This document shows positions 22,880-59,139 of a stretch of DNA of 64,000 bases, piece by piece. The stretch lies in the sequence record KX452698; one strand, 5' to 3'. Position 1 is the first letter of the stretch. Each line of letters opens with the position of its first letter. The stretch comes from Shigella phage KNP5. The notes beneath the pieces were generated by a model. That model did no database searches. It was not told the origin of the DNA and saw nothing but the letters and a program-made list of their open reading frames with translations. A program made the translations under genes and the position numbers.

Positions 22880-25800
22880 ATGGCCGAGATTAAAAGAAAG
22901 TTCAGAGCAGAAGATGGTCTGGACGCAGGTGGCGATAAAATAATCAACGTAGCTTTAGCTGATCGTGCCGTAGGAACTGACGGTGTTAACGTTGATTACC
23001 TAATTCAAGAAAACACAGTTCAACAATATGATCCAACTCGTGGATATTTAAAAGATTTTGTAATCATTTATGATAACCGCTTTTGGGCTGCTATAAATGA
23101 TATTCCAAAACCAGCGGGAGCTTTTAATAGCGTACGTTGGAGAGCATTACGTACTGATGCAAACTGGACAACTGTTTCGTCAGGACCTTATCAATTAAAG
23201 TCAGGTGAATCAATTTCAGTTAATACTGCAGCAGGAAATGATATCACATTTACTTTGCCAACTTCTCCAATTGATGGAGATACTATCGTTCTTCAAGATA
23301 TTGGTGGAAAACCTGGAGTTAACCAAGTTTTAATTGTAGCTCCAGTGCAAAGTATTGTAAACTTTAGAGGCGAACAAGTACGATCAGTACTAATGACCCA
23401 TCCAAAATCACAGATAGTTTTAATTTTTAGTAATCGTCTGTGGCAAATGTATGTGGCTGATTATAGCAGAGAAGCGGTAGTTGTGACGCCAGCAAGTCTC
23501 TACCAGGCGCAGTCAAACGATTTTATCGTGCGTAGATTTACTTCCGCTGCGCCTATTAATATTAAACTTCCGAGATTTGCTAATCATGGCGATATTATTA
23601 ATTTCGTTGATTTAGATAAATTAAATCCTCTTTATCATACAATTGTTACTACATATGATGAAACTACATCAGTACAAGAAGATGGAACTCATTCCATTGA
23701 AGGCCGTACATCTATTGACGGTTTCTTGATGTATGATGATAACGAAAAACTGTGGAGATTGTTTGACGGGGATAGTAAAGCACGTTTACGTATCATAACG
23801 ACTAATTCAAATATTCGTCCAAATGAAGAAGTTATGGTATTTGGTGCGAATAACGGAACAACTCAAACGATTGAGCTTCAGCTTCCGACCGATATTTCTG
23901 TTGGTGATACTGTTAAAATTTCCATGAATTACATGAGAAAAGGGCAAACAGTTAAAATCAAAGCTGCTGGTGAAGATAAAATTGCTTCTTCAGTTCAATT
24001 GTTGCAATTCCCAAAACGTTCAGAATATCCACCTGAAGCTGAATGGGTGACTGTTCAAGAATTAGTTTTTAACGGTGAAACTAATTATGTTCCAGTTTTA
24101 CAGCTTGCTTATATAGAAGATTCTGACGGAAAATACTGGGTTGTACAGCAAAACGTTCCAACAGTTGAAAGAGTTGATTCTTTAAATGATTCTACTAGAG
24201 CAAGATTAGGCGTGATTGCTTTAGCTACACAAGCTCAAGCTAACGTCGATTTAGAAAATTCTCCACAAAAAGAATTAGCAATTACTCCAGAAACATTAGC
24301 TAACCGTACTGCTACAGAAACTCGTAGAGGTATCGCAAGAATAGCAACCACTGCTCAAGTGAATCAGGATACTACATTCTCTTTTGCTGACGATATTATC
24401 ATCACTCCTAAAAAGCTGAATGAAAGAACTGCTACAGAAACTCGTAGAGGTGTTGCTGAAATTGCTACACAGCAAGAAACTAACGCAGGTACTGATGATA
24501 CTGCAATCATCACTCCTAAAAAGCTTCAAGCTCGTCAGGGTTCTGAATCATTATCAGGTATTGTAACCTTTGTATCTACCGCAGGAGCTACTCCAGCTTC
24601 TAGTCGTGAATTAAATGGTACAAACGTTTATAATAAAAACACTAATAATTTAGTTGTTTCGCCTAAAGCTCTGGATCAGTATAAAGCTACTCCAACACAA
24701 CAAGGTGCAGTAATTTTAGCAGTTGAAAGTGAAGTAATTGCTGGACAAAGTCAAGAAGGATGGGCAAATGCGGTTGTAACGCCAGAAACGTTACATAAAA
24801 AGACATCAACTGATGCAAGAATTGGTTTAATTGAAATTGCTACGCAAAGTGAAGTTAATACAGGAACTGATTATACTCGCGCAGTCACTCCTAAAACTTT
24901 AAATGACCGTAAAGCAACTGAAAGTTTAAGTGGTATAGCTGAAATTGCTACACAAGTTGAATTCGACGCAGGCGTCGACGATACTCGTATCTCTACACCA
25001 TTAAAAATTAAAACCAGATTTAATAGTACTGATCGTACTTCTGTTGTTGCTCTATCTGGATTAGTTGAATCAGGAACTCTCTGGGACCATTATACCCTTA
25101 ATATTCTTGAAGCAAATGAGACACAGCGTGGTACACTTCGTGTGGCTACACAAGTTGAAGCTGCTGCAGGAACATTAGATAATGTTCTAATAACTCCTAA
25201 AAAGCTTTTAGGTACTAAATCTACTGAAGCGCAAGAAGGCGTTATTAAAGTTGCAACTCAGGTTGAAACTGTAGCTGGAACGTCAGCAAATACTGCTGTA
25301 TCTCCAAAAAATTTAAAATGGATTGTACAGAGTGAACCTACTTGGGCAGCAACTACTCTGGTAAGAGGTTTTGTTAAAACTTCATCCGGTTCAATTACAT
25401 TCGTTGGTAATGATACCGTTGGTTCAACACAGTCATTAGAATTATACGAAAAAAATAGCTATGCAGTATCGCCATATGAATTAAACCGTGTATTAGCAAA
25501 TTATTTGCCGTTAAAAGCAAAAGCTGCAGATAGTAATTTATTGGATGGTCTAGATTCATCCCAGTTCATTCGTAGGGATATTGCGCAGACGGTTAATGGT
25601 TCACTAACCTTAACACAACAAACGAATCTGAGTGCCCCTCTTGTATCATCTAGTACTGCTACGTTTGGTGGATCAGTTTCGGCAAATAGTACACTAACTA
25701 TTTCTAATACTGATGGAACAGCAACTCGTCTGATTTTTGAGAAAGGACCTCAAACTGGAACGAACCCGGCTCAAACGATGACAGTCAGCGTGTGGGGGAA

Positions 25801-53617: not shown

Positions 53618-54220
53618 TTATAGATTAAATCCTTCAAAATCAAGAGTATAGATAGTGTATGTTGAATACTTTTTATACTCATATCTATCCGCAATTCTAA
53701 ATACACTTCCAGCAGGTATCATTACTTCTTGTTCATCTGAAACTAATTCCATATTACGATAGCGATGGCTATCCGGAAATTTAAAACTCGGGCTATATTC
53801 TTTACAACGTAAAGCTTTTATAGCATACTCCTGGAAATTAAACACCATAGGAGCTTTGAATTCAAAAATAACTTGCGTGTTGTATTCTAATCCAGAAGCA
53901 AAATGTAGAGCTATATTTTTATCATATGAAGCTGATACTACTTTATCAAATGTAATAATATCAATTCCTTGATTTAACACCTGCTTAGTCTCAACTGGAA
54001 CACCTCTCCAAAGAGGTTTATCGTTTGGAACCAAACGAGATTTGATTATTTCATTTAACCAAGAATGATCGTCTGGCTTATTAGTAATACAATGAATTAA
54101 AAGTTCAATTTCGGATAAATTAAATCCTTCAGAAAGTAATTCTTCACGAATAGAAGCACGCACCGATGCATCCATTGATTTGATTTTAAAATCTTTTAAT
54201 TGCATTGCTGAATATTTCAT
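53618..54220 (-). CDS. modA: ADP-ribosyltransferase (ModA/ModB family)
   Basis: 200-aa ORF with R-S-ExE signature: LWRG, SAS, EQEVMIP. modA versus modB assignment is by size only. Confidence 0.75.
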   Translation of the reverse strand: MKYSAMQLKDFKIKSMDASVRASIREELLSEGFNLSEIELLIHCITNKPDDHSWLNEIIKSRLVPNDKPLWRGVPVETKQVLNQGIDIITFDKVVSASYDKNIALHFASGLEYNTQVIFEFKAPMVFNFQEYAIKALRCKEYSPSFKFPDSHRYRNMELVSDEQEVMIPAGSVFRIADRYEYKKYSTYTIYTLDFEGFNL

Positions 54221-54852
54221 TCAACTACCTCAATATCATACACTTTAAATGTTCCAAATGAATCGTGTAATTTTTCTTTTGAAATAGAAGTTATTTTATA
54301 CTTTCCAATTGGAATCATCCATTCTTGTTCACGTACAATCATCATTAAGTTATCAGTACGTTCTGAATCTAATCCATCAGTATCTTCATATGTATACTTA
54401 AACTCAGTATTAGGAGAAGAAAGTATAATATCGCTGATATGGTCAGAATAATTAAAAGCTTTATCAGTTTTTAAGCGAAATATTATTTCAGTGGAATATT
54501 CAACATAAGAAAAACCACATGCTGTATGCAAACTAGTAGTAAATGAATCTACTCTGTTCGTTGAAAACACTTCTCCGACTTGTAAATCTTTAATGAGTTC
54601 TTTTGTCGATTTTGATATACCACGATATAGCTGATAAGGCGATTTAGTTAAATGCTTTTTAACGATTTTATTCAACTGCTGATGAAGAGCTTCATTCTTT
54701 TTGGCTTCCATACATTGCCAAAGAACTGACTGTTCAAAGTCAGTAAATTTTTCACAGACCTTTTTATACATATCATATTGAAAATCAACACTTTCAGCTT
54801 TTATAGATAACTGTTCAACATCTGCAAGATTAATAATCATGATAGCCTCCAT
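54217..54852 (-). CDS. modB: ADP-ribosyltransferase (ModA/ModB family)
   Basis: ORF with LYRG, STN/SFTTS, EQEWMIP motifs; internal ATG at 54840 would give 207 aa. Confidence 0.75.
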   Translation of the reverse strand: MEAIMIINLADVEQLSIKAESVDFQYDMYKKVCEKFTDFEQSVLWQCMEAKKNEALHQQLNKIVKKHLTKSPYQLYRGISKSTKELIKDLQVGEVFSTNRVDSFTTSLHTACGFSYVEYSTEIIFRLKTDKAFNYSDHISDIILSSPNTEFKYTYEDTDGLDSERTDNLMMIVREQEWMIPIGKYKITSISKEKLHDSFGTFKVYDIEVVE

Positions 54853-54907
54853 ATACTTCAGAAGCTATCATATCATTGTTAGGAAGGAAAGTAAACAACT
54901 TTTTGAA

Positions 54908-55090
54908 TTATTTTGCCCAGGGAGCCCAAGGCGGAGGGTCAAGATGGTATGAAGCTAGTTCTTCTAGAAGAGCATCTGGGGCTTCAATTCCATAATTCTG
55001 TAATACTATACGGTACTCTTTCTTATAATCACTAGAATCATTCTGGTTATTTGTAGAATGATTATCTTCTAACATCTCAAATAAATCCAT
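54908..55090 (-). CDS. hypothetical acidic protein
   Basis: 60-aa ORF. Confidence 0.45.
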   Translation of the reverse strand: MDLFEMLEDNHSTNNQNDSSDYKKEYRIVLQNYGIEAPDALLEELASYHLDPPPWAPWAK

Positions 55091-55098
55091 ATTAATTC

Positions 55099-55569
55099 CT
55101 AGCGATAAAAACCAAAATGACGATTAGCTTCAATAATCTTTCTTTCTTCTTCGGACATTCTCCAGCGTAGTCCAACATCAAAATGAGCCCAGACCATCTT
55201 AACAAATGCATTTATATCTTTAATATCTTCAATAATGAATGTTTTACTTTTATAAGGTTGACTAGCTAATTTAACTTTATCGTCTTCAAACAGGTCAAAA
55301 AGACCATATTCATGAGCTCTTTTATAGCCTTTAATAGTTAAAGCTTCAGAAGAAGAAAACGGTGAATCAGTATTCTGTAAAATATCTTCAGTATGCTTTA
55401 TAATTAGAATAACATTTTCTGGATATTTTCTTTCTTTTATATCTTTAATTAAAAAATCCGGATTTTCTGCTAAAGGAATAATTAATGAGCAATTTTTATT
55501 AAGTGTATTTACTGATTTACCTTCTTTAGACATAAATTCTATTGAATATCGTTTTGCTACTTCAATCAT
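55099..55569 (-). CDS. hypothetical protein
   Basis: 156-aa ORF. Confidence 0.5.
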
Positions 55570-55722
55570 GTGATTTCCTTTTGCCTACTAATGGACCGTC
55601 AGGAATTTTGTTTTCCTGGATATATTTCTCATTTTCTTCCATCATTTTACTGCCAATTTTAAGAAGCAAATCCAGTGCTTCGTTTGCTTTAGCTTTAGCC
55701 TCTTCTAATGCCATATCTCTGT

Positions 55723-55926
55723 TCACGATTTATCCCCATAGATGTCTCTCATCAATTTAAGCGCTGAGCGTTCTAATTTCTTTTCTTTCTCAGCACTAAT
55801 CATTGATTTCATCCATTCTTCTGATTCGTTCTGCATTTCTTTATTTGCTTGTTCAACCCAACCATCGTCAATATACATTGAGTTTGGTCTATTGAACCAT
55901 TCAAGCATTTTCTTCAGAACTTTCAT
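55723..55926 (-). CDS. hypothetical protein
   Basis: 67-aa ORF. Confidence 0.45.
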
Positions 55927-56398
55927 TTGTTTTACCTAAAACAACAGTAGGAGCATCATCAAATTCATGAATTTTTAGCAAATTTGGATGTAAACTATTC
56001 CACACAGAAGAAATAAAGTATGATAAAGCATCTTCACTCGCAATTATAAATTTATTTCCTTTATCTATTTTCCAACTATATACTGAATCATACGAATAGA
56101 AAGATAAAGGATTATCATTATATTGTTCTGCGCTAACATTAATGTATTCTGATTTAGTAAATGCTTCAATTGCTCTAAATGGAATATTTGGTACAGTTTC
56201 AATAATACCAATCTTTTTAAGTTTTATTTCAGCATCTTCTGGAACTGGCATTGAAACGAAATTTTCTACGAGATACATTGGGTCACAATAACCCTTATCA
56301 ATCATTACTGCTACGGTAATTGGAACGTCTTTAGCAAACGACAAACTATTACTGCTAATATACATTTCAAACAAAATCGCTTCCATAATTTTCCTCAA
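55901..56398 (-). CDS. hypothetical protein
   Basis: 165-aa ORF. Confidence 0.5.
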
Positions 56399-56733
56399 TC
56401 ACAAGATGTAGATGAACAACTAGAATCACAAGAACTTCCACATGAATCGCCCGTCCATACATGAACAGGAACATTAGTATCATATGAATCAGAACTAGAC
56501 TGTGTATTCTGCGTATTAGATGATGTAGGTGTTGACCAGCGCCAAGGATTTTTATAATATTCCTGGGCTTCTTCATAAGTCATAGTAACTGCTTCTACTG
56601 TTCCATCTCCCATATAAACATATTCAACTACAGTTAAAGGGAGGTAGTCATTTGAAATAGGAACTACACCTTCTCCGGGAGTTGTAGAGAAAAAATCCGT
56701 AAAGAAACTTTTAAACCAATTAAAGATAAACAT
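56395..56733 (-). CDS. hypothetical protein with Cys/Ser-rich C-terminal tail
   Basis: 112-aa ORF ending ...[20 protein letters not shown]. Confidence 0.5.
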
Positions 56734-56945
56734 TACAAAAAGCCTCTTTGAAATTCGACTCTTTGAAATCCACCCCAGTCAGTGTATCGCATTTCAGCAT
56801 TGAACTCGACTGAACCATCTGCATGCATCATGAATGAATGCGTGACGATATCACAATCCCAGCTTTTCATACCCCATTTATCAGAGATAGCTTTATCAAG
56901 AACCTTCTGGAGGTCTTCATTTGGTTTAATCCAACGATTTAACAT
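56733..56945 (-). CDS. hypothetical protein
   Basis: 70-aa ORF. Confidence 0.5.
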   Translation of the reverse strand: MLNRWIKPNEDLQKVLDKAISDKWGMKSWDCDIVTHSFMMHADGSVEFNAEMRYTDWGGFQRVEFQRGFL

Positions 56946-57011
56946 AGTGCTCTCCTTTATAAGATAATTCTATTATACCATACTTGTTTTGGAAAGTAAA
57001 CCGGTAAAATG

Positions 57012-57036
57012 AAAAAAAGGACTCCCGAAGGAGTCC
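57012..57036 (-). terminator. rho-independent terminator after soc
   Basis: Hairpin GGACTCC-CGAA-GGAGTCC followed on the minus strand by a T7 run; hairpin identical to the one at 3962-3979. Confidence 0.7.
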
Positions 57037-57044
57037 TTAAATTA

Positions 57045-57281
57045 TTAACCACCTATTTGTGTAGGCGTAAACATTGCAGCATTCTTAGTTTTCCAATCAG
57101 CTGCATCAGAAACTACGGTAGAATATGCTGCCTTTTCAGAAGGAAAGATCTGATAATGAGAATCTGCGATACGATGCTCGTTAGAATAAATTTCAAACGG
57201 AACAGAAACTTCCATACCTTTAACTTCTTTGCCTTCACCTGCTGGATGAGTAAAGGTCTTGATGTTAACGAAACCACCCAT
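57045..57281 (-). CDS. soc: small outer capsid protein Soc (diverged from T4)
   Basis: 78-aa ORF with AAGGAG Shine-Dalgarno; shares ..VNIKTF..HYQ.FPSEKAAYSTV.. with T4 Soc as recalled; late promoter upstream and terminator downstream. Confidence 0.7.
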   Translation of the reverse strand: MGGFVNIKTFTHPAGEGKEVKGMEVSVPFEIYSNEHRIADSHYQIFPSEKAAYSTVVSDAADWKTKNAAMFTPTQIGG

Positions 57282-57312
57282 AATAAACTCCTTTATTGTT
57301 TAATTACAGGTG

Positions 57313-57320
57313 TATTTATA
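57313..57320 (-). promoter_or_regulatory. late promoter TATAAATA (soc)
   Basis: Plus tatttata = TATAAATA on the minus strand, 32 nt upstream of the soc ATG. Confidence 0.65.
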
Positions 57321-57323
57321 TCA

Positions 57324-57842
57324 TCAATAACCTCGGTCTTGACGAGCGAAGTTTTCAGCATTTTTCAGATAATAAAGTTTAAAGATTTCTTCAGCAGTAA
57401 GACCGAGACCTTGGAACATGTTCAGAACGAAATGAAGAATATCAATCATTTCGAATTTAATTTCCAACTGGTCTTGTGGAGACAAATCAGTAATTAAAGT
57501 TTCACGGCGTTCACCATGCTGTGACTTCCAAGGTTTCCATACAGCAGATGCATCTTTTTCACCATTACTCATACCACCAAGAGAAGTCAGTAGTTCGCGG
57601 AATTCATCATCAATATAATCTTTCTGATTACGCAACCAATCAACAACTTCACCTGCAGTAGCCAAATCATCAGGATGACGGTTATATTCAGGTTTATCTT
57701 TAGCTAAACGAACCTGTAGAGATTTCTGCATATCAAGCATAACCTGCAGCGGGTCTTTTTCATCACCGAGAATATCCCAGTATTCATTTTGAGCTTTATC
57801 AGCGCCTTCAATCAGTTGTGAACATTCATTAAAGTATGCCAT
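57324..57842 (-). CDS. 56: dCTPase/dUTPase gp56
   Basis: ATG at 57842 (AAAGGA Shine-Dalgarno) gives MAYFNECSQLIEGADKAQNEYWDILGDEK... (172 aa; T4 gp56 171 aa). The track ORF starts 31 codons upstream. Confidence 0.8.
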   Translation of the reverse strand: MAYFNECSQLIEGADKAQNEYWDILGDEKDPLQVMLDMQKSLQVRLAKDKPEYNRHPDDLATAGEVVDWLRNQKDYIDDEFRELLTSLGGMSNGEKDASAVWKPWKSQHGERRETLITDLSPQDQLEIKFEMIDILHFVLNMFQGLGLTAEEIFKLYYLKNAENFARQDRGY

Positions 57843-57913
57843 TATTTTTCCTTTCAATTCATGGGTTAGTAGATTAATTATACAATAAATATATAAAGCA
57901 ATAAGGAGGACAT

Positions 57914-58114
57914 ATGGTACAAAAATTAATGGCACTTGTTAATGCCATAAAAGGTAATAAGAAACGTATAGCTTTTACTATTTCTGCTATGGTAGGAATT
58001 TTACTCTGGAATTTTGTTTTATCGCCAATTGCTATTGCTCATGGCGTTAATATTCCAGTAATTACTCTTGATACATTCGTAGATTTAGCATTTGCTTTAG
58101 TTGGGTTAATTTAA
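57914..58114 (+). CDS. small membrane protein on the opposite strand
   Basis: 66-aa ORF with strong AGGAGG Shine-Dalgarno 4 nt before the ATG; one hydrophobic helix; stop codon overlaps the convergent gene 61 stop. Confidence 0.5.
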   Translation: MVQKLMALVNAIKGNKKRIAFTISAMVGILLWNFVLSPIAIAHGVNIPVITLDTFVDLAFALVGLI

Positions 58115-59139
58115 ATCTTAGCATATTTAGATAGCCGCATTTTAGCCATCAACCCTTGAGCAATATTATTTTTCATATATTCCATAATTTGTTTAGGGGT
58201 TGCACCTTCCTTTCTAATCATATCATTAACATCTTTTGATTTCCAGGGGGATTTATCCCAAAACATAACCCTTTCTCCTGCATCAACCAATTTAGTCATT
58301 CGTTTAATAGTGTCAGGGTGACGAGGTTCATTATCTAAAACCCATACACGTCTATCTTTAAATGGAACAATTTCTAGGTCTAATTGACCACCCGTAATAG
58401 CTATACCATTTTCAATAAAAAGTGAATCTATAGGTCCTTCTAGAACATATACATCACCATCTTTGACTCGTTCGACTCCATATATTTTTGTTGCCTCAGG
58501 ATAAGCTTTGATGGTGATATATTTTTGAGGAGCATCTTTCTTTAGTGCACGTCCTTGAAAAGACTCAGCTTTTCCGTTAGCATTATAAATTGGAATAACA
58601 AGACGAGGCTCAGGTATTTCCTTTTTATATGTTCCTGGCGCTATACTATTAACTAATTTAGGCCATTCGGTTGTAAACCAAAGATATTTCCATTTATCCT
58701 TTGGAATACAACGAGCTTTTACATATTTTATAATTGGATGGTCTTCCGCCAATTTATCTAATCTGATGCATGACGGAAGAGATTTAATTATTTTCTTCTC
58801 AGGTTGTTTAGGAAGTTCTTTAGGTTTTTCTACTGGACGACTTTTACCTTTTTCTTTTCTTATTTCAAAGATATACTCACGATATAAATCAGGTTCAAAC
58901 TCCTTTAAATATATTCCGATTGGTGCATGATAGTTGCAGTTATAACAATGAATATTTCCTTCATTATTATCACCATAATACCATCCACGGGCTTTATTTT
59001 GGTCGGTTTTTGAATCTCCACAAACAGGACATCTAAACCGTAATTTAAAAGTTGAACTATTATTTACTTGTGCAAATTTAGGTAAATGAGCCAATGCACG
59101 GTATGCAAACTCATTATCAATCCAAGGTATTGATGACAT
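58111..59139 (-). CDS. 61: DNA primase gp61
   Basis: 342-aa ORF with N-terminal zinc-ribbon cysteines (CPVCGDS...CYNCNYH) and TOPRIM-like region; length equals T4 gp61. Confidence 0.9.
   Translation of the reverse strand: MSSIPWIDNEFAYRALAHLPKFAQVNNSSTFKLRFRCPVCGDSKTDQNKARGWYYGDNNEGNIHCYNCNYHAPIGIYLKEFEPDLYREYIFEIRKEKGKSRPVEKPKELPKQPEKKIIKSLPSCIRLDKLAEDHPIIKYVKARCIPKDKWKYLWFTTEWPKLVNSIAPGTYKKEIPEPRLVIPIYNANGKAESFQGRALKKDAPQKYITIKAYPEATKIYGVERVKDGDVYVLEGPIDSLFIENGIAITGGQLDLEIVPFKDRRVWVLDNEPRHPDTIKRMTKLVDAGERVMFWDKSPWKSKDVNDMIRKEGATPKQIMEYMKNNIAQGLMAKMRLSKYAKI

Follow-up and report, generated by a model that had tools for sequence, protein, structure and literature searches.

The modB-soc interval of Shigella phage KNP5 as the probable counterpart of the T4 modA.2-mrh.2 early gene block

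Which genes fill the interval between modB and soc in Shigella phage KNP5, and do they constitute a rapidly changing cargo or a defined gene block of the T4 type? An earlier note on this DNA, which was prepared from the sequence alone, had described the interval as a hyperplastic block of six unknown open reading frames (ORFs) without recognisable motifs, one of which ends in a Cys/Ser-rich tail, and had suggested a role in host takeover or anti-defence. The stretch analysed in the current work (sequence record KX452698, 64,000 nucleotides, referred to as the window) belongs to a Tequatrovirus (T4-like) genome, and the block under study covers 2038 bases of its minus strand, at positions 54908-56945. 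The seven genes found in this interval are already known and occupy their canonical T4 place, and the interval very probably represents the Tequatrovirus early gene block modA.2-mrh.2, most likely acting as an accessory module directed at host transcription.

The order of the genes on the minus strand is mrh.2, mrh.1, mrh, srh, modA.4, modA.3 and modA.2, flanked by soc (57045-57281) and modB (54217-54840), which corresponds exactly to the seven genes T4p022-T4p028 of the T4 RefSeq record NC_000866, located on the same strand. Full-length BLASTP alignments matched each gene to the T4 gene at the equivalent position, with amino acid identities of 57-100%, the sole cross-match within the block being that of ModA.3 to Mrh (23% amino acid identity). 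All seven proteins match PHROG families. In addition, Mrh and ModA.3 match the Pfam family T4_MRH (PF24070; 143.4 bits, E 6e-42, and 132.5 bits, E 1.3e-38, respectively, for a gathering threshold of 24.4 bits) across profile positions 1-143 of 144, and Mrh.1 matches DUF7206 (PF23836; 98.9 bits, gathering threshold 25.6) across profile positions 1-107 of 107. The ORFs are therefore neither unknown, being orthologues of named T4 genes, nor devoid of recognisable motifs. The earlier note would have considered its reading refuted if all six ORFs had conserved counterparts in T4 with known housekeeping roles; conserved T4 homologues were found for all seven genes, none of them a housekeeping gene. 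At the DNA level, the identity of the block amounts to 99.6% with phage KNP1 and to 92.8% with T4. The wider stretch at positions 54700-57300 likewise shares 99.6% identity with Escherichia phage KNP1 and is covered to at least 80% by 494 phage records.

The seven genes occupy 2022 of the 2038 bases (a coding density of 99%), in agreement with the earlier description of an interval filled end to end by minus-strand ORFs. Their junctions consist of overlaps (TAATG, GTGA, ATGATTGA and a 26-nucleotide overlap of mrh and srh) or of 8-nucleotide gaps; the GTG start of modA.4 overlaps the stop codon of srh within the sequence GTGA, srh in turn overlaps the end of mrh by the 26 nucleotides mentioned, and the seven genes are translationally coupled (Table 1). 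The six ORFs of 60-165 amino acids originally counted are all present, and the count rises to seven with modA.4, a gene of 54 codons with a GTG start which was overlooked because it is shorter than 60 amino acids. The ORF reported with a length of 165 amino acids is likewise a real gene, which encodes 161 amino acids from an ATG at position 56386 preceded by a GAGG Shine-Dalgarno sequence; the longer version, starting from an upstream TTG, was rejected since this TTG is situated inside the GAGG ribosome-binding site. At the other end of the block, ModA.2 is an acidic protein with the C-terminal end DPPPWAPWAK.

Table 1. Features of the modB-soc interval in the window, with identities to the equivalent T4 gene or protein
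Feature	Position	Strand	Amino acid identity to T4	Nucleotide identity to T4	Remarks
Predicted intrinsic terminator after soc, GGACTCC-TTCG-GGAGTCC + T run	57017-57038	-			terminator scan; upstream bound of block
Predicted early promoter of the block (sigma-70 type), TTTACT, 17-nucleotide spacer, TG-extended TATAAT	56972-57000	-			promoter scan
mrh.2 orthologue, 70 amino acids	56733-56945	-	57.1%	66.2%	PHROG 1873; divergent allele
mrh.1 orthologue, 112 amino acids, DUF7206	56395-56733	-	98.2%	96.5%	
Codons of the C-terminal 18-residue tail of Mrh.1	56398-56451	-			tail identical in T4
mrh orthologue, 161 amino acids, Pfam T4_MRH	55901-56386	-	76.4%	84.0%	divergent allele
srh orthologue, 67 amino acids	55723-55926	-	100%	96.6%	PHROG 2441 'decoy of host sigma32', E 6e-41
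modA.4 orthologue, 54 amino acids, GTG start	55562-55726	-	94.4%	94.5%	PHROG 2681
modA.3 orthologue, 156 amino acids, Pfam T4_MRH	55099-55569	-	94.9%	96.8%	apparent paralogue of Mrh
modA.2 orthologue, 60 amino acids	54908-55090	-	100%	99.5%	PHROG 1647
Predicted early-type promoter before modB, TTTACT, 17-nucleotide spacer, TATGAT	54867-54895	-			downstream bound of block

Considering that several of the ORFs are very short (54-70 amino acids) and that three have no match in the Pfam copy searched, some or all of them might represent chance reading frames in AT-rich DNA. This is exceedingly improbable in view of the coding density and the coupled start and stop codons, of the PHROG family retrieved for every ORF, and of the homologues present in other genera. 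Moreover, the Nei-Gojobori ratio of nonsynonymous to synonymous substitution rates (dN/dS), calculated from the window, pSs-1, T4, Shfl2, RB18 and slur07, amounts to 0.04-0.30 for all seven genes, and all seven are under purifying selection. Time-course omics of T4 classed the RNAs of all seven orthologues as early, and mass spectrometry (MS) detected six of the corresponding proteins, i.e. ModA.2 (Y01E), ModA.3 (Y01F), ModA.4 (Y01G), Srh (Y01H), Mrh and Mrh.2 (Y01J) (PMC9697503 supplement).

The claim that these are early genes, made in the earlier note, is borne out both by this RNA classification and by an early-type promoter at the start of the block. This predicted promoter, situated just downstream of the soc terminator, is the best match of the region (10 of 12 positions), and its GTTTAC and -10 elements are kept in T4, pSs-1, RB18, JS98 and F2. 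The hairpin of the soc terminator is itself kept by means of compensatory changes, reading GGAACC/GGTTCC in JS98 and GGAATCC/GGATTCC in F2. No minus-strand terminator was predicted by the scan within the block, i.e. from the promoter after soc to the modB promoter, and the seven genes are predicted to form one early transcription unit. The T4 early promoters Pe15.0 and Pe12.8 have modA, modB, srh and mrh downstream (PMC6024815), and may be equated with the two promoters of Table 1. The region of the modB promoter displays a mean column identity of 98% among the window, T4, pSs-1 and RB18. The modB leader (54838-54872, minus strand) contains a 14-pair hairpin, 98% conserved in T4, pSs-1 and RB18, which shares bases with the -10 element of the modB early promoter and engages the Shine-Dalgarno sequence and AUG of modB in its pairing, and which could sequester this start site in read-through transcripts arriving from the upstream block. 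The only Rfam match obtained within positions 54000-58200, to the preQ1-II family, was discarded as a chance match (24 bits compared to a gathering score of 47 bits).

The term hyperplastic would imply that the content of the block changes rapidly among related phages. Within Tequatrovirus this is not what was found: at least 80% of the 2038-base block is covered in 496 of the 555 matching phage records, and the same seven genes are present, in collinear order, in the annotated loci of T4, pSs-1, Shfl2, RB18 and slur07, so that the six Tequatrovirus genomes compared (including the window) share all seven and content varies between genera only. Insertions that seemed to interrupt the blocks of RB18 and slur07 when concatenated tblastn matches were considered proved to be a joining artefact, both blocks being intact and collinear. 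Searched by tblastn against a collection of 50,697 phage records (E up to 1e-5), the individual proteins matched 812 (ModA.2), 741 (Mrh.2), 599 (Srh), 586 (ModA.4), 584 (ModA.3), 500 (Mrh) and 500 (Mrh.1) records. The most widely spread member is thus ModA.2, with 160 of its 812 records being Klebsiella phages, which match ModA.2 and part of ModA.3 only.

Variation within Tequatrovirus is instead allelic, with mrh, mrh.2 and soc behaving as divergent cassettes. Their nucleotide identities to T4 are 84%, 66% and 60%, respectively, compared to at least 94.5% for the neighbouring genes. All Mrh matches in the 500 records just mentioned are at least 60% identical and fall into 109 clusters at 90% identity, and the Mrh.2 allele of the window was retrieved at an identity of at least 95% in only 119 of the 741 Mrh.2-positive records. 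The adjacent soc and mrh.2 genes of the window (56733-57281) are alleles of the RB69/JS98 type, the Soc protein being 87-91% identical in amino acid sequence to those of JS98 and F2 and 46% identical to that of T4. Since the flanking genes are of the T4 type (at least 94% nucleotide identity) while soc and mrh.2 are of the RB69/JS98 type, these alignments point to a recombination mosaic with a boundary near the mrh.1/mrh.2 junction.

The neighbourhood of soc differs among these phages in other respects. Between soc and gene 56 (dCTPase) the window contains, at positions 57282-57323, neither segF nor a soc.1/soc.2 pair, and pSs-1 is equally compact; segF, a homing-endonuclease gene, is located between soc and gene 56 in T4, and a soc.1/soc.2 pair is found there in Shfl2, RB18 and slur07. 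Further along, a plus-strand ORF at 57914-58114, with gene 56 on one side and the primase gene on the other, specifies a hydrophobic protein of 66 amino acids, annotated as gp45 in pSs-1 and as 'similar to RB69ORF029w' in RB18.

Between genera, the content of the locus does change. JS98 (Dhakavirus) has no mrh, and the RB69-like phage F2 carries mrh.2, a short mrh.1, one T4_MRH gene, modA.2, a modA.4-like ORF and a weakly Srh-like ORF; no clear srh or mrh orthologue was found in this F2 locus. In Edwardsiella phage PEi20 and in an Enterobacter T4-like phage, the interval from soc to a Mod ADP-ribosyltransferase gene contains DUF7206, one T4_MRH gene and a member of the ModA.2 family, the ModA.2 homologues of both phages bearing the precomputed Pfam label PF26838 (Phage_T4_Y01E). 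Small ORFs located upstream of DUF7206 in these two loci (L009:3056-3492 in PEi20 and L010:3289-3504 in the Enterobacter phage) are probably Srh-like, and PEi20 also has a probable Mrh.2-like ORF; their pairwise E-values reach only 0.001 and 0.022, and the shared pattern W..W...P...KEKK...A.KL.D.(F/Y)G.KS is suggestive of very distant homology. A core consisting of Mrh.1, one T4_MRH protein and ModA.2, adjacent to soc and the mod ADP-ribosyltransferase gene, thus persists in distant T4-like genera; some core of the block is retained by Dhakavirus and RB69-like phages as well as by the Enterobacter and Edwardsiella phages. The Enterobacter contig (Logan ERR11525766) furthermore contains, directly following a normal soc gene of 82 codons, a gene for a 504-amino acid protein (L010:1724-3238) with Pfam matches to Soc and to GDSL lipase, which could represent the fusion of an esterase to a capsid-decoration protein.

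These data bear on the reading of the interval as fast-turnover cargo, composed of lineage-specific ORFs for anti-defence or host takeover. The genes are indeed early, small and dispensable, five of the seven having no known function; their content changes between genera (JS98, F2 and the Klebsiella phages), and the allelic divergence of mrh, mrh.2 and soc, in particular the number of Mrh clusters, is of the kind that such cargo would display. Collinearity of the seven genes in every Tequatrovirus genome inspected, their presence in approximately 500 records, dN/dS values well under 1 for all seven, a syntenic core extending to Edwardsiella and Enterobacter T4-like phages, and the lack of any match in defence-related or other functional libraries or of a link to defence in the literature nevertheless make this reading unlikely.

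The two T4_MRH proteins of the block, Mrh and ModA.3, are by their profile matches apparent paralogues, and the presence of both in Tequatrovirus may reflect a duplication, because a single T4_MRH gene fills that place in the distant relatives. The RefSeq label 'Mrh transcription modulator' carried by ModA.3 represents a name transfer. In many GenBank phage records, ModA.2, ModA.3 and ModA.4 bear the designation 'molybdenum ABC transporter, periplasmic molybdenum-binding protein', evidently a mistake due to name transfer from the modA gene of E. coli.

As regards function, the T4 region from gene 39 to gene 56 can be deleted, and mrh.2, for which deletions as long as 526 bp are tolerated, is non-essential (PMC8262927). 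According to T4 genetics cited in PMC6070864 and PMC8076793, both mrh and srh affect late transcription when the temperature is 42 °C or the host is an rpoH mutant. Mrh and Srh have been named sigma-32 decoys in a review (PMC3594737), and Srh has been postulated in the T4 literature to act as a decoy of sigma-32 on the RNA polymerase core; no demonstration of Srh binding to this core was found in the literature searched. Recombinant T4 Mrh is a soluble protein whose elution corresponds to a very large complex, and a cryo-electron microscopy structure of Mrh at 3.3 Å is mentioned as 'data not shown' (PMC8076793); no Mrh structure chain was present among the PDB sequences searched. The suggestion of host takeover therefore retains its value insofar as the region is dispensable and mrh and srh act on host transcription. 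For the accompanying suggestion of anti-defence no evidence was obtained: scans of the seven proteins with NCBIfam and PADLOC gave no match, the PADLOC models representing defence and not anti-defence proteins, and the literature search retrieved no paper tying any of the seven genes to a defence system. A literature search for mrh.1, modA.2, modA.3, modA.4, DUF7206 and PF24070 returned nothing relevant.

The decoy proposal was compared with the sequences themselves. By BLASTP, residues 23-60 of Srh align with residues 244-279 of E. coli RpoH, which comprise the helices of region 4.2, at 32% identity over 38 residues. The Smith-Waterman score of this pair corresponds to a z of 5.2, none of 3000 composition-preserving shuffles reaching it, and the Srh of JS98, which is 60% identical to that of the window, aligns with the same RpoH segment (z=4.7). 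This similarity would fit mimicry of sigma region 4, a fit that is far from proof, and competition by Srh for a partner of sigma-32 could follow from its likeness to the region 4.2 helices. No similarity was detected between Mrh and RpoH. AlphaFold2 (AF2) produced a model of modest quality for Mrh (predicted local distance difference test, pLDDT, of 62 and predicted template modelling score of 0.62), whose matches within BFVD are confined to T4_MRH-type proteins from other T4-like phages. PDB sequence searches with Mrh.1, Mrh, ModA.3, Mrh.2 and Srh produced nothing meaningful, the best E-values ranging from 0.5 to 7. Taken together, the block would most likely serve as a host-takeover accessory module which tunes host transcription and the heat-shock machinery, beside the Mod ADP-ribosyltransferases and Srd.

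Several observations weigh against this functional reading. The similarity of Srh to RpoH is short and too weak for a claim of homology, and no sigma factor was retrieved with Srh among PDB sequences at E-values up to 10. The link to sigma-32 derives from genetics of the 1990s concerning two of the seven genes. Mrh.1, T4_MRH and ModA.2 are present in phages without mrh proper, and clear srh orthologues are limited to Tequatrovirus and JS98-type phages; because the core of the block occurs without mrh proper or a clear srh, it need not act via sigma-32. With respect to Mrh.1, the AF2 model is poor, with an overall pLDDT of 55, with values of 74-81 for a hairpin-helix core and a disordered tail, and T4 Mrh.1 (P20706) is the sole member of the seven without an MS protein call despite its early RNA (PMC9697503 supplement). 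The protein holds just three Lys/Arg residues, its C-terminal tryptic peptide would measure 47 residues, and its absence from the MS data is probably due to this near lack of tryptic sites.

Mrh.1 is also the protein for which the Cys/Ser-rich tail had been reported, and it does end in this tail, 18 residues with four Cys, the whole tail being identical in T4. Among the 71 window ORFs of at least 100 amino acids, this is the only 18-residue stretch with at least four Cys (binomial P of 6e-5 at the window Cys frequency of 1.25%), and a tandem-repeat search detected no DNA tandem repeat or microsatellite beneath it. A second frame with a Cys/Ser-rich end (...SSGCYSCDTSTSFCSSTVS), located at approximately position 24299 on the minus strand of the window, is a stop-to-stop frame and a candidate only.

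In order to place this tail, members of DUF7206 were collected by a profile search, which recovered 127 proteins (an exhaustive phmmer search with Mrh.1 yielded only 10 representatives), and all of those that could be placed originate from T4-like phages or from contigs of matching size. Tail statistics were derived from 121 members and conservation from an alignment of 33 diverse members. The C-terminus consists of Cys followed by Asp, Asn or Glu in 112 of the 121 proteins, and of Cys-Asp in 110, across 62 distinct tails; the nine exceptions represent truncated or frameshifted calls. Exactly two Cys occur within the last 25 residues, 4-9 residues apart (mostly 6), in 106 of the 112 tailed members, and the penultimate Cys is followed by Asp in 99 of the 112. 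These last 25 residues are composed of 43% Ser, 14% Asp, 12% Gly, 8% Cys and 8% Tyr, and are devoid of Lys, Arg, Glu and Leu. Invariant in the 33 aligned members are Y40, G42, G44 and the terminal Cys (C111), with K8, F11, E37, D43, E47, V49, S101, C102, S104 and D112 conserved in at least 90%; the window protein carries Y40, G42, D43 and G44 together with the C-terminal Cys-Asp end, and so displays the DUF7206 signature of a YxYMGDG core and a Cys-Asp terminus preceded at 4-9 residues by a second Cys.

The layout of the family comprises an N-terminal amphipathic helix (hydrophobic moment 0.4-0.65), a YxYMGDGMMEEV hairpin with a helix, a hypervariable linker (of Ser/Thr/Asn/Gln in the window protein) and the Cys/Ser/Asp tail. 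The T4 clade, to which the window protein belongs, is distinguished by four tail Cys instead of the two of DUF7206 at large, and by a short Ser/Thr/Asn/Gln linker, whereas other clades possess a charged linker and a hydrophobic stretch; where the T4 clade has its two further Cys, Tyr or Ser is found elsewhere. Rather than a peculiarity of one phage, the tail is thus the conserved C-terminal signature of DUF7206, with the approximate form S-C-D, 4-9 Ser/Gly, S-C-D-COOH, and its conservation across the family marks it as a selected motif, not as drift.

What such a motif might do can be narrowed to a limited number of readings. A dedicated metal-binding peptide, of the zinc-finger or metallothionein type, or a disulfide-rich peptide, as suggested in the earlier note, would account for the four Cys within 18 residues, unique in the window. 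It would also account for the conservation, in 110-112 of the 121 members, of the free C-terminus and of two Cys that mostly have Asp as the next residue, Cys and Asp being good metal ligands; the alignment of the two additional T4-clade Cys with Tyr or Ser of other clades has been counted in its favour as well. Only two Cys are conserved in the family, however, so that a classical four-ligand site in a monomer would need Asp or the carboxylate, or a second chain. The tail contains no His and no CxxC, its Cys being spaced as C-x3-C-x3-C-x4-C, and it differs in this from a classical zinc finger, zinc ribbon or metallothionein, with their four conserved Cys/His at CxxC-type spacing. Disulfides are unlikely, given that the lack of a signal peptide leaves the protein in the reducing cytoplasm, and AF2 predicts disorder; this reading is accordingly considered doubtful.

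Cys/Ser-rich cores of ribosomally synthesised and post-translationally modified peptides (RiPPs) resemble the Mrh.1 tail in composition and in C-terminal position. The tail could hence be imagined as a modification substrate, a RiPP-like Cys/Ser/Asp core on a leader, an idea to which its Ser/Asp/Gly/Cys composition, its position and the status of Mrh.1 as the one block protein unseen by MS in T4 would lend themselves. As the scarcity of Lys/Arg and the 47-residue peptide explain the missing detection, and as the neighbouring genes are all identified T4 genes with no maturase type among them (no gene for a modifying enzyme was found within approximately 3 kb in the window and the distant loci, where soc, 56, 61, mrh, srh, mod and srd were identified), this is very improbable. 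The lack of His and CxxC, of a signal peptide and of a modifying enzyme encoded nearby therefore disfavours a classical zinc finger, a periplasmic disulfide peptide and a RiPP alike.

The most economical guess for the tail is in our opinion a site of thiol/carboxylate contact, which might involve a bridging metal or two chains. Under this tentative interpretation, to which we would give rather less than even weight, the tail may contact a partner, directly or through a bridging metal, from a flexible linker on a protein that its helix could anchor to a surface. A more specific version, which we regard as distinctly improbable, would make Mrh.1 a new type of small phage effector whose amphipathic helix lies on a membrane or partner and whose linker-borne SCD...SCD-COOH warhead plugs or bridges a metal site in a host protein. 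An example of such a target would be FtsH, the membrane Zn protease that degrades sigma-32, inhibited in the manner of a cysteine switch; if true, Mrh.1 would be connected in function with the neighbouring mrh and srh.

As the outcome of a genome scan the finding is minor, since the genes of the block are annotated in T4 and located where they would be expected. Five of the seven are nevertheless without a known biochemical function though conserved in hundreds of T-even phages, and the synteny of Mrh.1, T4_MRH and ModA.2 beside the Mod ADP-ribosyltransferase gene across genera suggests a functional unit. For mutagenesis, the Cys-Asp motif that is so sharply conserved at the C-terminus of the Mrh.1 family provides an easy point of attack. 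This SCD...SCD motif of DUF7206 and the synteny that Mrh.1, T4_MRH and ModA.2 maintain beside mod over large distances, neither of which was found described in the searchable literature, are the only mildly new elements.

When compared to known systems, Srh displays a short and weak similarity to region 4.2 of sigma-32 (RpoH), in a protein of 67 amino acids that is without the other sigma regions. Within the T4_MRH family, a genetic phenotype is available for Mrh only, ModA.3 being a member by sequence. The closest counterpart is the T4 block itself, from which the window differs in its mrh, mrh.2 and soc alleles (76%, 57% and 46% amino acid identity, respectively) and in the absence of segF. 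It has in common with T4 the set of seven genes, their order and strand, the location between modB and soc, the promoter and terminator, and the Mrh.1 tail, and the lengths of the encoded proteins are equal for five of them (60, 156, 54, 67 and 161 amino acids) and nearly so for Mrh.1 (112 versus 113) and Mrh.2 (70 versus 68).

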